Positions 30,841-50,776 of a stretch of DNA of 64,000 bases are shown here, piece after piece. The notes below the pieces were generated by a model that was not told the origin of the DNA, did not search any database, and was given only the letters and a program-made list of their open reading frames with translations. Source of the DNA: Promethearchaeota archaeon. Lineage in GTDB: Archaea > Asgardarchaeota > Lokiarchaeia > Sigyniarchaeales > SOKP01. The stretch lies in assembly GCA_019058445.1 (NCBI GenBank), contig JAHPZA010000010.1, positions 32,001 to 96,000 of the forward strand, in the 5' to 3' direction. Position 1 is the stretch's first letter; each line of letters opens with the position of its first letter. The position numbers were made by a program, and so were the translations under genes.

Positions 30841-32340
30841 CTAATATTTTCCCAATAGATCATGTGGTCTTGCTTCTGTTTGTCCTATGGCAGAAATTAC
30901 TCCCATTTTCGCAGTTCTCATATTTAGAAGATTTTGAGCTCCTGCATATATCATCCCGTTAGCTAATCCTTCCTTTAAAGTTTCTAGCATGCTTTCTAAT
31001 GGTCCAGTAAAGGGTACATAGTCAGATACACCTTCAGGAAGCATTTTAGCTTCAACACTGTATCTATCCAATACATAATTCGTAGTCCGCGCTTCCTTTG
31101 AGCCCATCCCTCTATAAATCTTTACCTTTCTCCCTTGAATGGTATCTAAATATCCCGGGCTTTCGGTTGTACCAGCAAAAAAATGGCCAGACATAATCAT
31201 ATCAGCGCCGACTGCGAATGCTTTTGGTAGATCTCCTGGATTTTTAAATCCTCCATCAGCGATTAATCCCATTTTGGGATTATAGTCCGCTATAGCGTCT
31301 GCAACTTCAGCAGTGGCAAACAAAGTTGGAGCTCCAACTCCAGTTTGGATGGAGGTAGTACAAATTGAACCAGAACCCATCCCCACTTTCAATGCAATAA
31401 GTTTTTCAGGATAGTCGCATTTAGTCAAAATAAACTCAGCGGCTTCATAAGTCCCTATATTCCCAACGATAAAATCACCTTCCAGTAAATCCATTAATTT
31501 TCGCGTACCTTCAATATCATCTTTTTTATAAAAATCTGCTACATCTATGAAGAATATATCCGAATATTGGTCGATTTCTTTAAGTTTTGAAACTGCCTCA
31601 CTGGATGTCGGGTATTTTGGACTAATTGCTAGAGCACATAGTAAACGGCCTTCTTCATCTATTGTAGCTAAGGGGAACTCGGGTTTTAGATCCTTTTTAG
31701 TAATTAAGCCTCTTAAGTTTCCATTATCGATTATAGGTAATTTTTCGATTCTATGCTTGAATAACATTTCTAAAGCCTCTTTACGGGATGCATTTGGTTT
31801 AATAGAAATTACATCCCTTGTCATGAAATCTTTCACATGCCCCTTTTTGCATTCCTCTTCTGAATATGGAATGTCTCTTTTTGTAAATATTCCACAGACC
31901 TTATTATTTTCATCAACTACTACTAATCCGCTAATGCCATAGTTTTCCAAAAAGTCTTTTGCTTTATATAAGGGTTCATCTGGTGTGATTGTTGCTACAT
32001 CTTCAATAACAAAAGATCGAGCTCGCTTTACGTGGCGCACCATTTTTAATTGTTTTTCAAAGGAACAATTTCGATGTAAAACACCTAATCCTCCAAAAAG
32101 TGCCATTTTAATTGCCATTTCTTCTTCTGTGACGGTGTCCATTGCTGCTGACATTATTGGTAAATTAAATTTATACTTTTCTCCTAATTTAGTAGAAATA
32201 TCGACTTCACTTGGTCCAAAGCTAGTATATCCCGGAAGGAGAAGAACATCATCAAAAGTTGTGATTAACTCATTTGTATGGGCTTTTTTACGGAAATAAT
32301 CTGACATTTTAAATTCACTTATTTGTAATATTTTCTTCAA
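30841..32340 (-). CDS. guaB: IMP dehydrogenase with CBS pair
   Basis: TFDDVLLLP, SAAMDTVTE, VGMGSGSICTT, IADGG, YRGMGS, PEGV. Confidence 0.95.
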   Translation of the reverse strand: MKKILQISEFKMSDYFRKKAHTNELITTFDDVLLLPGYTSFGPSEVDISTKLGEKYKFNLPIMSAAMDTVTEEEMAIKMALFGGLGVLHRNCSFEKQLKMVRHVKRARSFVIEDVATITPDEPLYKAKDFLENYGISGLVVVDENNKVCGIFTKRDIPYSEEECKKGHVKDFMTRDVISIKPNASRKEALEMLFKHRIEKLPIIDNGNLRGLITKKDLKPEFPLATIDEEGRLLCALAISPKYPTSSEAVSKLKEIDQYSDIFFIDVADFYKKDDIEGTRKLMDLLEGDFIVGNIGTYEAAEFILTKCDYPEKLIALKVGMGSGSICTTSIQTGVGAPTLFATAEVADAIADYNPKMGLIADGGFKNPGDLPKAFAVGADMIMSGHFFAGTTESPGYLDTIQGRKVKIYRGMGSKEARTTNYVLDRYSVEAKMLPEGVSDYVPFTGPLESMLETLKEGLANGMIYAGAQNLLNMRTAKMGVISAIGQTEARPHDLLGKY

Positions 32341-45490: not shown

Positions 45491-46054
45491 TTACACCTTC
45501 TCCTCAAATCCTCCTAAATCCATATCCTCTATATCTGCTTCAAATGAAATTAGTCCCAAGGAATATTTTGCCGAAATTTTTAATTCTTCTGCTACAAAAT
45601 CAAATATCGGATCTCTTGTTAAATCAGCATTCAGGGCAATATCAGTAAAATTTACATAGTCTATATCTTCATAATCAATACCAATTTTAAATTTCTTTTT
45701 CTCCCCGGCAGGAATGGTTGCAAATGATTTCTCATCTTCATAGAGTTTTACTTCTGTTGTAACATTGCCACTAACAGTAACTCTATCGTACACTAGATTT
45801 AACAACATCTCTACTTCCAGATCTTCTAAATCAAAATACCCCAAGTTATTAATTTCAAATTCAATATCAATTTCAAAGCTATTTGGATCAATAAATGGGT
45901 TGCCATCATAAGATACGTCAATATCGATATTTTCTTCATTAGTTAATATGAGTGCCGCAGAATACCCCCCTAGAAATGACACTAAAGACATTGAGGAAGC
46001 TAATATAAAGAGGAAGATTCGAACAATTAATCGAAAAATTCTTTCTGGTCTCAT
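45491..46054 (-). CDS. Hypothetical membrane-anchored protein with acidic beta-rich (LEA_2/Ig-like) domain
   Basis: N-terminal TM, EINNLGYFDL pattern, AGGAG RBS. Confidence 0.65.
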   Translation of the reverse strand: MRPERIFRLIVRIFLFILASSMSLVSFLGGYSAALILTNEENIDIDVSYDGNPFIDPNSFEIDIEFEINNLGYFDLEDLEVEMLLNLVYDRVTVSGNVTTEVKLYEDEKSFATIPAGEKKKFKIGIDYEDIDYVNFTDIALNADLTRDPIFDFVAEELKISAKYSLGLISFEADIEDMDLGGFEEKV

Positions 46055-46258
46055 AATTGTTCTCCTATATTCTTTTTATTATTTTCATTTCTTTTTGTTC
46101 AATTTTATAGGTAAATTGTGACTAATTAAAATTATAAAGTTCCATCTATTAAAATTTATATATTTTTCTATAGGAGAAAAATCATTATTTTACTTCTTTA
46201 CTTTAGAAATTTCAGATAAAATTGAAAGGTAAAAAAAAAAAGATGCTAATTAAAAAAC

Positions 46259-46270
46259 CGGTCGCAACCG
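46259..46270 (-). promoter_or_regulatory. Short hairpin immediately 3' of SECIS A, followed by U-tracts
   Basis: CGGT-TGCG-ACCG followed by TTTTTT and a longer T-run. Confidence 0.5.
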
Positions 46271-46273
46271 TAA

Positions 46274-46310
46274 ATCGCTAATCTTCTAACATTTATCAAG
46301 ATTAGTTCAT
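46274..46310 (-). promoter_or_regulatory. Eukaryote-type SECIS element A (3'UTR)
   Basis: AUGAA-CUAAUCUU-GAUAAAUGUUAG-AAGAUUAG-CGAU: AUGA/GA core, perfect 8-bp stem, apical AAA; 13 nt after the stop of 46324..46686. Confidence 0.88.
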
Positions 46311-46323
46311 TTTTTTAAAAGAA

Positions 46324-46686
46324 TTAAATATGTTCTATTTCCAATGAAAACGAGCCTCTGTATTTACCAAAAAGTTTCCATGTATGTGCATCGATTTTAA
46401 TTGTTTTTGAGTTACTTTTTAATTCATTTTTCAGGTATTTATCAATATAAATATCAAATCCACCATTATCAACTTCAATTTGATTCCATTTTTCAAAATG
46501 AGGATTATTAGCAACTTTATGTTTCTCAACTAATTGAACAACATCACTGCAAAATGTTCCGGATCAAGATCTGGTAAAGTATCTATAAATAGCAAAAACT
46601 AAATCATTTAACTTATTTTGTTTAACGATTTTATTATGCTTTTCCTGTAAAAGTGTTAAGGCTCTTTCTGATATTTCTAAATTCAT
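46324..46686 (-). CDS. Selenoprotein A (120 aa, Sec41, U-x4-C), HesB/IscA-like small protein; absent from ORF track
   Basis: AGGAG RBS; MNLEISERALTLLQEKHNKIVKQNKLNDLVFAIYRYFTRS-U(TGA 46564-46566)-SGTFCSDVVQLVEKHKVANNPHFEKWNQIEVDNGGFDIYIDKYLKNELKSNSKTIKIDAHTWKLFGKYRGSFSLEIEHI; SECIS downstream. Confidence 0.85.
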
Positions 46687-46809
46687 CAATATACTCCTAA
46701 TCTTTGCTCAAAACTTTTTATTATTTATTTCTTTATAAATGAAAAAAGCTGAGAACTAAAAATAATATGGTTTATAATTTAAAATTTTAAGAATAATTTT
46801 AGTTATAAA

Positions 46810-47154
46810 TTATTTTTTATCTTCCTTTAAAATGAGAGATACAAATTCATCTTCAAATTTCTCAGTTTTCTGTATGTCTATTAATATTTTTCCTATCTCT
46901 GGAAAATCTTTTAATATCCTTCTTTCAATATAAATAAGAACAGTATTACCATAACCATCATCAACTTCTTCATATTTTTCGTATAGATCTATCTCAATTT
47001 TCGCCTCAGTAAAATTTAATTCAAGATAATAATCTAAATATGACCCCGCACAAGCCTGTTTGCTAATTTGATATATGAGAATTACAGGTTTTACATTTCT
47101 GCCTTCTTTTCGTGCCTGAATATATTCAATTGTGTCTTTTGTTAAAGAAAACAT
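46810..47154 (-). CDS. Cys-containing paralogue of the flanking selenoproteins
   Basis: ILIYQISKQA-C-AGSYLD aligns with FAIYRYFTRS-U-SGTFCS; shared IYIE...I.ID pattern; no SECIS in its 3' region. Confidence 0.8.
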   Translation of the reverse strand: MFSLTKDTIEYIQARKEGRNVKPVILIYQISKQACAGSYLDYYLELNFTEAKIEIDLYEKYEEVDDGYGNTVLIYIERRILKDFPEIGKILIDIQKTEKFEDEFVSLILKEDKK

Positions 47155-47245
47155 TTTTAAATTCCTTTATTAAAACTTATTATGTTTATTAATTATCATT
47201 TTTACCTCATTTTACGTTCTCATTATTCTATTTTCATATATGGAA

Positions 47246-47259
47246 CGGGTGCATAACCG
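47246..47259 (-). promoter_or_regulatory. Short hairpin immediately 3' of SECIS B
   Basis: CGGT-TATGC-ACCCG, 3 nt after the SECIS core, the same spacing as copy A. Confidence 0.45.
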
Positions 47260-47262
47260 CAA

Positions 47263-47298
47263 ATCATTTTTCTTCTAACATTTTAAAGAAAAACTCAT
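47263..47298 (-). promoter_or_regulatory. Eukaryote-type SECIS element B (3'UTR)
   Basis: AUGAG-UUUUUCUU-UAAAAUGUUAG-AAGAAAAA-UGAU; perfect 8-bp stem; 3 nt after the stop of 47302..47682. Confidence 0.88.
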
Positions 47299-47301
47299 AT
47301 T

Positions 47302-47682
47302 TTAACCATATACATCTTTTTGTTTCTTAAGAAATAATAAACCCATTTGCTCACCATTCAATTCACCAAGTGCCACATCAATTAGTACTATAGTTTTTTG
47401 TGTTAATTCTTGGATCAAATCATTTTCAATATAAACTTCAATATTAGGGTCATCTATTATCTCATTCCATTGAATAAAATTTTCCTTTTCATCAAGAACC
47501 TTATGCTTTTCGACTAATTCGATGACATTACCACAGAAGGCCATTGTTCAACTCCCCCCAGAATAATAGAAAATCACCAGAACATATTTATTTAGCTCGT
47601 TCAATATTTCATTCTGTTCAAATGGTTTATTCTTATTGTAAATAAAATCCAATGCTTTTTTAGAGATTTGTATTTTAAACAA
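47302..47682 (-). CDS. Selenoprotein B (126 aa, Sec45, U-x4-C); track ORF 47302..47544 is only its post-UGA part
   Basis: AGGTGG RBS, TTG start; MFKIQISKKALDFIYNKNKPFEQNEILNELNKYVLVIFYYSGGS-U(TGA 47548-47550)-TMAFCGNVIELVEKHKV...; SECIS downstream. Confidence 0.85.
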
Positions 47683-47908
47683 AAACCACCTACTTTAATT
47701 CTTGATTAATTAATATTTATGAAATAAATAGTTAAAATTTATCAAAAAGCTTTGGATTTCTCGATCCTTAAGCATTGATTTCAAAAGCCAGAATGGTTTT
47801 TTTATGATAATTAATTAACCAAAACCAATAAGTAGAAATATCATTATTTCTACATTTTTTTTAACCATTTAACAACTAACTCTTAAATAGAAAATAAAAT
47901 GAATTAGA

Positions 47909-50776
47909 GTGGAAATAATGGAAATAAATGCACATTCATTAGAAGTTCAAGAAGTAGTTAATAAAATGAATACTTCATTGGACACAGGATTATCTGAAAA
48001 AGAGGTAAATAAAAGAATTGAGGAGTATGGTTTAAACGAATTACGAGAAACTAAAAAAATTTCAGCATGGCAAATCTTTTTAAGTCAGTTTAAGGATTTT
48101 CTGGTTTACTTATTATTATTTGCAATTGCTATATCCCTTATCGTTGGATTTTATGAACTCTCTGTTGGGGAGGAACCTTCTGAATTCTTAGATGCTTTAG
48201 TAATATTTATAATATTAATTATTAACGCGGTTTTAGGATTTTATCAAGAGTATAAAGCAGAACAGGCATTAGAAAGCTTAAAAAGGATGGCCCCCCATAA
48301 TGCTAAAGTTAAAAGGGATGGGATGGTAAAAGAAATTGAGGTAAAATATGTAGTACCTGGAGATATCTTGCAATTAGATGAGGGTGATAAATTACCTGCT
48401 GATGCAAGGTTAATCCAAGCATATTCTTTATATATTGATGAAGCGATTCTTACTGGTGAATCTCAACCTGTCGAAAAAAATCTTAAATTAGTTGAAGAAA
48501 AGACAATTCTTGCAGATCGTAAAAATATGGTGTATAGCAATACAATAATAACTCGAGGTAATGGAGTAGCAATTGCTGTAGCAACCGGAATGCAGACAGA
48601 GATTGGAAAAATTGCTGAAAAAATTCAAGCAGAAGAACCTGAACCAAGTCCATTTCAAATTGAAGTTGACCGTTTTGGAAAATCTTTAGGGAAAATTATA
48701 TTGATTGTATGTTTTTTGGTTTTCTTAATAGAATTCTTTATAATCATATTAACTGAGGGTTTAGAATTTGGAAGGGAAGAAGTAGGCCATATAGTTGCCG
48801 CTTTAACTATAGCTATAAGTCTAGCAGTTTCCGCTGTACCAGAAGGATTAATAGTGGTAATAACAGTAGTTATGAGTATAGGAATGAGAAAGATGGCAGA
48901 TAGAAATGCATTGGTGAAGACTCTTACTGCTGTTGAAACTTTAGGACGGGTAAATATAATATGCTCAGATAAAACTGGCACACTTACTAAAAATGAGATG
49001 ACTATTGTAAAACTATTTCTTGGAGGAAATGAATATAATGTAGAGGGCGTGGGTTATAATGTTGAGGGAAAAATTTTAAATGAATCCGGGAATGCTGTGT
49101 CATTGGACTTATCGTATTTAAAGAGATTTTTAGAAGTAGGAAATTTTTGTAATAATTCTAGTGTAATTATTAATGAGGATGGAGTAAGTACTGATGTTGT
49201 GGGAGACCCGACTGAGATCTGCTTTAAAATTTTAGCATTGAAAATGAGTCTTGATACTAAAGCTGAGAAACTTAATGAAATCCCCTTTAGCTCTGATAGA
49301 AAAATGATGTCTGTTGCCATAAAAATCGATAATAAAATATATTCTTTTCTTAAAGGAGCACCTGATGTTTTATTAAAAAATGCAGCAAAAGGATTTTATA
49401 ATGGAGAAGAAAAACCGATTAATGAGATTAAAGACACCTTTCTTAATAAAAATGAAGAATTTGGTAAAAATGCTTTAAGAGTCTTAGGATTGGCATATAA
49501 ACCACTACATGAAGGTTATAATGAAGAGGATATGGAAAAAGATTACGTATATCTCGGACTTGTAGGTATTATAGATCCTGCTCGAGATGAGGTTAAAAAA
49601 TCAATAGTTCAGGCAAGAATGGCAGGAATTCGAACTATTATGATCACAGGAGATCATAAAATTACCGCAATTGCGATTGCTAAAGAGATTGGTTTAACTG
49701 ATAACGATGATGCTATAACTGGTGCGGAGTTAGAGGAGATATCGGATGAAAATTTAGCAAATCGGCTTCAAAATATAGATGTATTTGCAAGAGTCACATC
49801 GGAACATAAATTACGTATCCTTAAAATCTTAAAGACTCAAGGAAATGTTGTTTCGATGACCGGTGATGGAGTAAACGATGCTCCTGCTGTAAAAGGGGCG
49901 AATGTTGGAGTTGCTATGGGCTTAAAAGGAACTGAAGTCACGCAAGAAGCTTCGGATATGATCCTTATTGATGATAATTATGCCACTATTGTAAATGCGA
50001 TCGAAGAAGGAAGGGGTATTTTTGAAACTACTAAATGTTTCTTTAGATATATGCTAAGCGCAAATTTTGATGAAATAATCCTAATCTTAACAGCCTGGAT
50101 TCTTATGAAGCTTTTCGTTAATGTTTATCTCGCTATACCCCTTGAACCTATACAAATATTATGGTTAAATATTGCCACTGATGGTATTCCGGCGATGGTC
50201 TTAGGTTTAACTCCTACTGATCCTGATGTGATGAATTTTAAACCGCGTAAAGGTTTTAATATGATTGCTGATATCAAGAAAGCCATAATATTTGTGGCCA
50301 TTTTTGCAGCAATCACTGATGTGGCATTATATGTAGTTTGTTGGTCAATTTTAATTCCTGCTTGGAGTGATCCAAATTCACCTTGGTATGATCCCCGTTT
50401 AGTCAATGGAACTACGATTTGGGGCGTGAAATATTCAGCAGAGGAGTATCAAATTGGTGTAGTACAAACTATTGTTTTTACTAATGTAGTCTTTTTCGAA
50501 TTATTCTTTGTATTCTCATGTACTTCTGAATATAAACCAATGTGGGAATTTCCAAACAAACATTTATTCTGGGCGACAGCAGTATCATTTGGATTACACT
50601 TGGCAATTTTATTTACACCACTTTGCATCGCATTCCATGCAGTACCGATGGATCGATGGTTTTACTGGCTAGCAATTTTTTTGGGTTCAATTTTTATTAT
50701 ACCTGCTGAAGAAACAAGAAAATACTTAAAAAGAAGAAATTTTCAAAAAAGTCCACAAAATTTTGAAATCTCATAA
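47909..50776 (+). CDS. P-type ATPase, P2A (SERCA-like Ca2+ pump), copy 1
   Basis: TGES, PEGL, DKTGT, KGAP, TGD, GDGVND, SANFDEI, WLNIATDG; the start may be ATG 47918. Confidence 0.93.
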   Translation: MEIMEINAHSLEVQEVVNKMNTSLDTGLSEKEVNKRIEEYGLNELRETKKISAWQIFLSQFKDFLVYLLLFAIAISLIVGFYELSVGEEPSEFLDALVIFIILIINAVLGFYQEYKAEQALESLKRMAPHNAKVKRDGMVKEIEVKYVVPGDILQLDEGDKLPADARLIQAYSLYIDEAILTGESQPVEKNLKLVEEKTILADRKNMVYSNTIITRGNGVAIAVATGMQTEIGKIAEKIQAEEPEPSPFQIEVDRFGKSLGKIILIVCFLVFLIEFFIIILTEGLEFGREEVGHIVAALTIAISLAVSAVPEGLIVVITVVMSIGMRKMADRNALVKTLTAVETLGRVNIICSDKTGTLTKNEMTIVKLFLGGNEYNVEGVGYNVEGKILNESGNAVSLDLSYLKRFLEVGNFCNNSSVIINEDGVSTDVVGDPTEICFKILALKMSLDTKAEKLNEIPFSSDRKMMSVAIKIDNKIYSFLKGAPDVLLKNAAKGFYNGEEKPINEIKDTFLNKNEEFGKNALRVLGLAYKPLHEGYNEEDMEKDYVYLGLVGIIDPARDEVKKSIVQARMAGIRTIMITGDHKITAIAIAKEIGLTDNDDAITGAELEEISDENLANRLQNIDVFARVTSEHKLRILKILKTQGNVVSMTGDGVNDAPAVKGANVGVAMGLKGTEVTQEASDMILIDDNYATIVNAIEEGRGIFETTKCFFRYMLSANFDEIILILTAWILMKLFVNVYLAIPLEPIQILWLNIATDGIPAMVLGLTPTDPDVMNFKPRKGFNMIADIKKAIIFVAIFAAITDVALYVVCWSILIPAWSDPNSPWYDPRLVNGTTIWGVKYSAEEYQIGVVQTIVFTNVVFFELFFVFSCTSEYKPMWEFPNKHLFWATAVSFGLHLAILFTPLCIAFHAVPMDRWFYWLAIFLGSIFIIPAEETRKYLKRRNFQKSPQNFEIS

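Follow-up and report, generated by a model that had tools for sequence, protein, structure and literature searches.

We analysed a 64,000-nt stretch of DNA from a Promethearchaeota archaeon (GTDB lineage Asgardarchaeota; Lokiarchaeia; Sigyniarchaeales; SOKP01), namely positions 32,001 to 96,000 of contig JAHPZA010000010.1 in assembly GCA_019058445.1; this whole stretch is referred to as the window. Two elements on its minus strand, named SECIS A and SECIS B, are very probably functional selenocysteine insertion sequence (SECIS) elements of the lokiSECIS type, located in the 3' untranslated region (3'-UTR), each recoding the single UGA of its own gene to selenocysteine (Sec). We favor this reading because the elements covary, are associated exclusively with UGA-containing genes in more than 50 genomes, and occur together with a complete Sec machinery, which supports the view of a preliminary description of this DNA that there is one SECIS per Sec gene.

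The host genome is that of an Asgard archaeon (Promethearchaeota), comprises 4.6 Mb in 10 contigs, and is 92.6% complete; the GC content of the window is 30%. Three paralogous genes lie in tandem, all on the minus strand, with Sec in gene A, Cys in the middle paralogue, and Sec in gene B. Genes A and B contain one in-frame TGA each. The genes, their UGA codons, and the elements are as follows:

47302..47682, minus strand: selenoprotein gene A, 126 codons, TTG start, TAA stop, predicted IscA/HesB-like fold, motif G-S-U-T-M-A-F-C
47545..47547, minus strand: in-frame UGA of gene A (Sec45), from the translation with TGA=U, aligned to the Cys of the middle paralogue
47263..47298, minus strand: key region of SECIS A, with AUGA, a 9-bp helix II, an 11-nt apical loop, and GAU
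46810..47154, minus strand: middle paralogue, 114 amino acids, with Cys at the Sec column, without a second Cys and without a SECIS
46324..46686, minus strand: selenoprotein gene B, 120 codons, ATG start, TAA stop, motif R-S-U-S-G-T-F-C
46561..46563, minus strand: in-frame UGA of gene B (Sec41), from the translation with TGA=U
46274..46310, minus strand: key region of SECIS B, with AUGA, helix II (A.C plus 8 bp), a 12-nt apical loop, and GAU

Structures of SECIS A and SECIS B

The AUGA of SECIS A (47298-47295) is separated by a 3-nt gap from the TAA stop codon (47304-47302), and its GAU ends at 47263. In SECIS B, the AUGA (46310-46307) follows the TAA stop codon (46326-46324) after 13 nt, and the GAU ends at 46274. 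The stem of SECIS A, formed by GUUUUUCUU and AAGAAAAAU, is paired at 9 of 9 positions with the G-U at its base included, and its inner 8 bp are UUUUUCUU/AAGAAAAA. The stem of SECIS B, formed by ACUAAUCUU and AAGAUUAGC, carries an A.C at the base and is paired at 8 of 9 positions, with CUAAUCUU/AAGAUUAG as the inner 8 bp. The two apical loops, UAAAAUGUUAG with 11 nt in SECIS A and GAUAAAUGUUAG with 12 nt in SECIS B, have AAAUGUUAG in common, and three double (compensatory) changes distinguish one stem from the other. SECIS B is followed by U-runs downstream, and in both genes the UGA lies ~250 nt upstream of the element. The preliminary description had reported AUGA...GAU cores, which we confirm to the base on the minus strand, and it was likewise correct in its differing, perfectly paired 8-bp stems, the apex shared by both loops, the compensatory stem changes, and the spacings of 13 nt (SECIS B) and 3 nt (SECIS A) after the stop codon. 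The plain minimum free energy (MFE) z-scores of 121-nt stretches at both elements were not significant (0.42 and -0.86); folding energy is a poor test here because the sequence is AU-rich.

Conservation and covariation

We assembled 33 distinct homologous elements, the two of the window plus 31 taken from other DNA, all of which start 1-18 nt past the stop codon or overlap it. Helix II was tested on a sequence-only MAFFT alignment of this set, with 500 shuffles and slid pairing partners as the controls. Pairing was found in 91.9% of the cells, compared with 76.4 ± 1.5% after shuffling, and none of the 500 shuffles reached the observed value; with the partner slid, pairing fell to 50-56%. Double-sided changes were observed in 47 cells where 14 were expected, and eight of the nine pairs covary. 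Since 14 of the 33 elements leave the base position unpaired, the alignment argues for a canonical helix of 8 bp, with the ninth position being part of a non-Watson-Crick core. RNAalifold recovered, unprompted, helix II together with a second 4-bp hairpin, hereafter the mini-hairpin. The A and G of AUGA, two adenines of the loop, and the GAU are invariant columns among the 33 elements, and the AUGA as a whole is nearly invariant.

In our reading, SECIS A and SECIS B are paralogous copies that diverged alongside their genes, which accounts for the compensatory changes in the stems under a shared apex.

Specificity within the genome and across genomes

A covariance model of the SECIS core plus the mini-hairpin (R1) matched the 4.6 Mb genome at only two sites, both of them the elements of the window, with 72.2 bits for SECIS A (over 47239-47304) and 77.7 bits for SECIS B (over 46252-46316), and without a match at the Cys (middle) paralogue. 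Applied to 135 genomes of the same GTDB family, R1 gave 70 matches in 56 genomes. Of the 64 protein matches in these genomes, 61 have an R1 match directly 3' on the same strand, and two of the remaining three lie at contig ends. Nine R1 matches were found without a listed gene; six usable ones were inspected, and a seventh locus is a contig-end stub. Upstream of three of the six is a divergent type B gene carrying U, and upstream of a fourth is a VhuD-like gene that also has U. The fifth is an orphan (G182), and the last is a weak false match lacking AUGA. The orphan (L050, G182:C66:81253-81316) is a well-formed family-type SECIS with a score of 72.5 bits and no recognizable family gene upstream on its strand, and may be a relic of gene loss.

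A strict, family-independent descriptor (ATGA, 8 inner pairs, an A-rich loop of 10-12 nt ending in G, then GA) had five matches in 9.2 Mb (both strands), none in the reversed genome, and none in five Markov decoys. All five follow UGA-containing open reading frames (ORFs), namely VhuU, PrxL (UxxU peroxiredoxin-like), a Cys-Sec-Sec gene, and genes A and B. Taken together, the descriptor and R1 results therefore mean that the motif does not follow ordinary genes. The preliminary description had named its common occurrence after genes without an in-frame UGA as evidence that would speak against the reading, and had pointed to a covariance-model scan of the genome; the former is not what we found (5/5 strict matches follow UGA-containing ORFs), and the latter returned the two window sites alone.

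The same results bear on the possibility that the elements are regulatory kink-turns of the L7Ae type, acting in translational repression or RNA processing and unrelated to recoding. Archaeal L7Ae binds kink-turns, which counts for this explanation. No SBP2 is reported in Asgard archaea in the main texts of two surveys (PMC4989117, PMC11227280), which also counts for it. However, the motif is found only after UGA-containing genes, genome-wide and in the relatives, and L7Ae binding would be compatible with SECIS function and hence no true alternative; we consider a role apart from recoding very unlikely.

Several further loci were noted during the scans. A lokiSECIS with a 6-bp 3' hairpin (L042:3051-3113, G000:C6:634054) lies after a 183-codon open frame containing G-C-U-U, and from its sequence this frame may encode a further selenoprotein missing from the lists. 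A second PrxL-like SECIS copy (L040:3007-3075, minus strand; G000:C3:332068) follows a short zinc-ribbon ORF ending in UGA and adjoins a TnpB-like (IS605-type) gene at L040:860-2164, and the true PrxL, with G-G-W-U-V-Y-U, is located at L040:2402-2935 on the minus strand. In a VhuU-like gene (D-C-U-L-S-C-A-A-H; L041:3125-3330, G000:C3:242125-242330), the reading frame continues as far as the UGA within the SECIS AUGA, and the stop codon may thus be supplied by the SECIS core itself. A SECIS-like match of 14 bits at C3:222151 (minus strand) is antisense inside an FAD-oxidase gene and was taken as chance.

Evidence for a selenocysteine reading of UGA

A profile of the three paralogues, searched against 1.84 billion proteins, matched only 46 representative clusters. 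About half of these begin exactly past the Sec column and are therefore regarded as truncated by gene callers, which also split genes A and B at the TGA. In 34 metagenome loci, every gene of type A or B has TGA at the Sec column. A gene of the family is present in 53 of 400 genomes of the phylum, and all 53 belong to one GTDB family (the host and 52 of the other 134 genomes of that family). The 64 gene matches in these 53 genomes all have exactly one TGA, at a shared column that is flanked by conserved protein sequence to the left and right. A Cys-type paralogue (C-A-G-S-Y-L-D) often lies beside the type A and type B genes, and the Cys of the middle paralogue in the window aligns to the UGA column. 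No SECIS was found after the Cys genes of the CAGSYLD type in the 34 metagenome loci.

These data also bear on the idea that the elements are transcription terminators or mRNA-stabilizing 3' structures and that the TGAs are true stop codons of split or decaying genes. Both elements lie at gene ends, U-runs follow SECIS B, and the gene callers do read the TGA as a stop. However, the frame is conserved around the single TGA in 64/64 matches from 53 genomes; the invariant AUGA, loop AA, and GAU with a covarying stem are not required of a terminator; and the motif is also present after PrxL, VhuU, and SelD, with the Cys paralogue lacking an element. We regard termination or mRNA stabilization as extremely improbable. 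Just as improbable is a reassignment of UGA, local or genome-wide, to Trp, Cys, or another standard amino acid, with the hairpin as a general read-through stimulator. In its favor, full-length public entries, covering many homologues, carry W at the Sec column. However, in all three with retrieved DNA this W comes from a TGA translated under code 4 on a short contig, TGA regularly serves as a stop codon in the genome (ending 250 of 1,984 long frames, 12.6%), the UGA column aligns with the Cys of the paralogue, and the genome has dedicated Sec machinery.

Selenocysteine machinery

The genome encodes SepSecS (478 bits), a PSTK-like protein, SelD with one in-frame TGA, and a SelB-like factor (242 bits). 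The Rfam tRNA-Sec model found nothing in the whole genome. With a local permissive scan, we located a tRNA-Sec candidate ~2 kb from SepSecS; its anticodon is UCA, its acceptor stem has 9 bp, and its variable arm is long. ARAGORN called a 'tRNA-SeC' at C1:27020-27126, which probably represents a normal tRNA with an intron. With introns allowed, ARAGORN also called a tRNA with a CUA anticodon ('tRNA-Pyl') at G000:C9:655982-656074 (complement), a candidate of a kind in which calls are often spurious.

Mini-hairpin and probable helix I

Beyond the core, the elements contain a GC-rich mini-hairpin of 3-4 bp, mostly CGG...CCG, located 2-4 bases past the GAU, and a candidate lower helix I. Their positions in the window are as follows:

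47245..47260, minus strand: 3' mini-hairpin of SECIS A, GCGG/CCGU stem with an 8-nt loop (MFE fold, RNAalifold, and pair counts)
46259..46270, minus strand: 3' mini-hairpin of SECIS B, CGGU/ACCG stem with a UGCG loop (MFE fold, RNAalifold, and pair counts)
47306..47313, minus strand: probable helix I of SECIS A, 5' strand GUAUAUGG, last codons of the coding sequence (CDS), pairing with 47236-47243 (MFE fold and own-partner duplex test)
47236..47243, minus strand: probable helix I of SECIS A, 3' strand CCAUAUAU (MFE fold and own-partner duplex test)
46250..46257, minus strand: candidate helix I of SECIS B, 3' strand UUUUUUAA, pairing with UUAAAAAA at 46311-46318 (MFE fold)

The mini-hairpin was detected in 32 of the 33 elements of the family, with pairing in 87.9% of the cells compared with 35-52% when the partner was slid. 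Some members have alternative stems, such as CCAG/CUGG and GCAGG/CCUGC. All six SECIS examined in the genome, that is, the five strict matches and the type II SECIS of SelD, possess the mini-hairpin, and its background rate after a random GA is 11%. We consider the mini-hairpin established at the level of sequence.

In most type A elements, the last codons of the CDS pair with the bases directly after the mini-hairpin, as in GUAUAUGG with CCAUAUAY, GUGUAUGA with UCAUACAC, GUUUAUGG with CCAUAAAU, and AGUAUGU with ACAUACU. In type B elements, helix I is merely an A-run facing a U-run; the candidate in SECIS B consists only of A and U and is weak, with a self duplex of -2.6 kcal/mol, and its 3' strand may double as an oligo-U terminator. 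Helix I was seen in most of the constrained MFE folds. In an alignment-free duplex test, the own partners gave a mean of -5.42 kcal/mol versus -3.67 ± 0.32 kcal/mol for permuted partners, a value reached by none of 5000 permutations; shuffling of the 5' flank gave only modest z-scores (mean -1.0). We regard helix I as probable, and in most family members it probably closes a three-way junction with the core and the mini-hairpin. The preliminary description had called the elements minimal and had found an obvious lower helix hard to see. The term is not tenable, given the mini-hairpin in 32 of 33 members and helix I in most of them. The mini-hairpin and the three-way junction are not mentioned in the main texts of PMC4989117 and PMC11227280.

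Points against the SECIS reading and proposed mechanism

Several results weigh against the reading set out above. The PSTK-like gene, at 149 bits, is below the curated cut-off. The tRNA-Sec candidate scores only 28 bits against an Rfam threshold of 47 because its T arm does not align. Column-based covariation of helix I on the MAFFT alignment was not significant, as its (UA)n content pairs out of register (slid by 2), and helix I is absent in a few members (L004, L012, and L019). The core variants AGGA (L016-L018) and AUGU (L024 and L025) replace AUGA in some homologues; judging from their sequences, either the core would be tolerant of change or those copies would be impaired. Finally, an Rfam scan of 46000-47900 with E up to 10 found no SECIS family and no box C/D over the elements, and its only three matches were at chance level and located elsewhere. 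The main text of Mariotti et al. states that their elements are likewise unmatched by the Rfam SECIS families, and it describes a T-loop intron in Loki tRNA-Sec (PMC4989117).

Among the variant copies, AGGA is located at L016:1555-1590 and L017:2877-2912, and AUGU, with a bulged 3' strand, at L024:2889-2925; in each case the upstream gene keeps its in-frame UGA. On metagenome contig Ga0307427_1057406 (L034:300-365), the apparent stop codon of a type A gene is itself a UGA (..Y-G-UGA), situated 2 nt before the AUGA of the SECIS, and an upstream UGA is the Sec codon. From its sequence, this appears to be a natural example of the meaning of UGA being set by position.

For the SECIS reading, we propose the following mechanism. 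The folded element, made up of the kink-turn-like core (AUGA opposite GAU), helix II, and the apical loop of 11-12 nt ending in AG, would recruit the Sec-specific elongation factor (SelB) with Sec-tRNA(Sec) to a ribosome paused at the UGA, either directly or via a kink-turn-binding adaptor. Ribosomes arriving at the stop codon would have to melt helix I and the core, which would refold afterwards.

Host proteins of the elements

The protein products have no significant match to known families in sequence. In Pfam, PF01521 (Fe-S_biosyn) gave 13.9 bits (E 0.067) for gene B against a cut-off of 26.3 and no match for gene A or the Cys paralogue, and a PDB profile search found no IscA. No significant family was found in NCBIfam; the CC/Se motif family (NF041239/PF28096) reached 12 bits (E 0.17) where the cut-off is 40, in an alignment of just 17 residues, and in the Atlas feature search this family was only a weak neighbor (0.82).

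The AlphaFold2 model of the gene A protein has a predicted local distance difference test (pLDDT) score of 90. The best Foldseek matches are IscA, SufA, DsrR, and 'putative Fe-S biosynthesis' proteins, with IscA 1r94 at the top (E 5.5e-4). VIA gave a Z of 8.3 to IscA 1s98, with 96 of 97 residues aligned and a root-mean-square deviation of 3.7, compared with Z values of at most 3.5 for unrelated folds. In this model, the gene A protein adopts an IscA-type fold, and the Sec/Cys position is located in the loop of the central β-hairpin, between the strands 33-43 and 48-58. E. coli IscA has three cluster-ligating cysteines, one in the β-hairpin loop and two in a C-terminal CxC motif. On the model, the Sec/Cys would be equivalent to the loop Cys of IscA; the C-terminal tail is without Cys in all three paralogues. 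PF01521 had no match in the whole host genome (92.6% complete) at E up to 0.01, and the three divergent IscA-fold paralogues may be the only members of that fold in the genome. As guesses, the U-x4-C of the family could form a selenenylsulfide redox couple, or the proteins could use their IscA scaffold to carry a chalcogen or a metal.

Two neighboring genes flank the cluster. A 955-aa P-type cation ATPase gene (47909-50776, plus strand) is divergent from gene A at a distance of 226 bp, and a membrane-protein gene (46054-45491, minus strand) is located downstream of the cluster and is syntenic in metagenome locus L001.

The family is absent from the Asgard selenoprotein lists in the main texts of PMC4989117 and PMC11227280. 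Huang et al. 2024 list seven Asgard selenoprotein families, for which they searched by homology to known families only (PMC11227280). Here, a selenoprotein family has been missed by homology-only surveys; Asgard selenoproteomes are therefore under-counted, and searches that start from the SECIS are worthwhile. The Sec/Cys/Sec tandem is a ready-made internal comparison for asking what an IscA-fold protein gains from selenium.

Asgard SECIS elements are a proposed link between archaeal and eukaryotic Sec decoding. The paralogous SECIS pair and the more than 60 orthologous copies represent a natural experiment, in which fixed bases (AUGA, the loop AA, GAU, and the CGG/CCG mini-hairpin) can be told from positions that need only to pair. 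We tentatively propose, with less than even confidence, that the working SECIS of these Asgard archaea, instead of the plain AUGA-stem-loop-GA hairpin of published models, is a three-way junction with the mini-hairpin as a factor recognition element, and that the U-x4-C IscA-fold family is new and lineage-restricted. If true, this would give a handle for finding the archaeal SECIS-binding factor and for placing the architecture in the archaeal-to-eukaryotic SECIS transition.

Comparison with known systems

Kink-turn three-way junctions ('k-junctions'), such as those of TPP riboswitches, have a tandem G.A core with a third helix adjacent to it. The predicted core and branching helix of the present elements would be similar.

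The SECIS elements of Methanococcales and Methanopyrus share with SECIS A and SECIS B an archaeal host, a 3'-UTR location, and the PSTK plus SepSecS pathway. In contrast to them, the present elements have no GAA_A bulge and no GC-rich upper stem; their helix II is uninterrupted and AU-rich, and their core is of the AUGA/GA kind.

Eukaryotic type I SECIS elements resemble the present ones in the AUGA_AA_GA signature, the 3'-UTR location, the single element for each mRNA, and the distance over which they act (~250 nt here). Unlike the eukaryotic elements, the elements described here carry a hairpin in the 3' side of the internal loop, have no Rfam match, occur in a group in which no SBP2 is known, and begin 1-18 nt from the stop codon rather than far downstream. 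The label 'eukaryote-type' used in the preliminary description holds for the AUGA_AA_GA signature, but the kind is not new and corresponds to the lokiSECIS, which lies near the stop codon (PMC4989117).

Among proteins, HesB-like selenoproteins are known in bacteria and in Methanococcus maripaludis (MMJJ_08070) (PMC1794560, PMC11097638). Like them, the proteins of genes A and B are small (~110-125 aa), have a predicted IscA/HesB-type fold, and carry Sec. They differ in having no significant PF01521 or NCBIfam match, in lacking the C-terminal Cys pair of A-type carriers, and in the motif U-x4-C.

The closest system is the lokiSECIS. Mariotti et al. 2016 describe it as an AUGA, a 9-bp stem, an 11-nt loop, and a GA near the CDS end, with the first bases of the loop mostly A and its last base an ultraconserved G that is usually preceded by A (PMC4989117). 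A type I element has an AUGA (rarely GUGA) 5' of the stem and a GA (or AA) 3' of it, and the type I model of Huang et al. allows a stem of 7-15 bp with at most two mismatches and a loop of 8-20 nt (PMC11227280). SECIS A and SECIS B both have the AUGA before and the GA after the stem that define the lokiSECIS and the Asgard eukaryotic-SECIS-like type I; their stems agree as well (9/9 with the G-U in SECIS A and 8/9 in SECIS B), and so do their loops, that of SECIS B with 12 nt being one over the 11 of Mariotti et al. and inside the range of Huang et al. They also share the near-stop 3'-UTR position, the UGA-containing gene, and an Asgard host with Sec machinery. SECIS A is an exact fit to the description of Mariotti et al. 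if the basal G-U is counted, and both elements fall within the broader type I definition of Huang et al. The differences are that a U always follows the GA in this family, whereas the other SECIS elements of the genome have GAC; that SECIS B departs in its loop of 12 nt and its basal A.C; and that the host family is missing from the seven Asgard selenoprotein families of PMC11227280. Judged by these sequence features, SECIS A and SECIS B belong to the known lokiSECIS kind. The RNA kind itself is known, and what is new here is the unlisted host family and the extended architecture.

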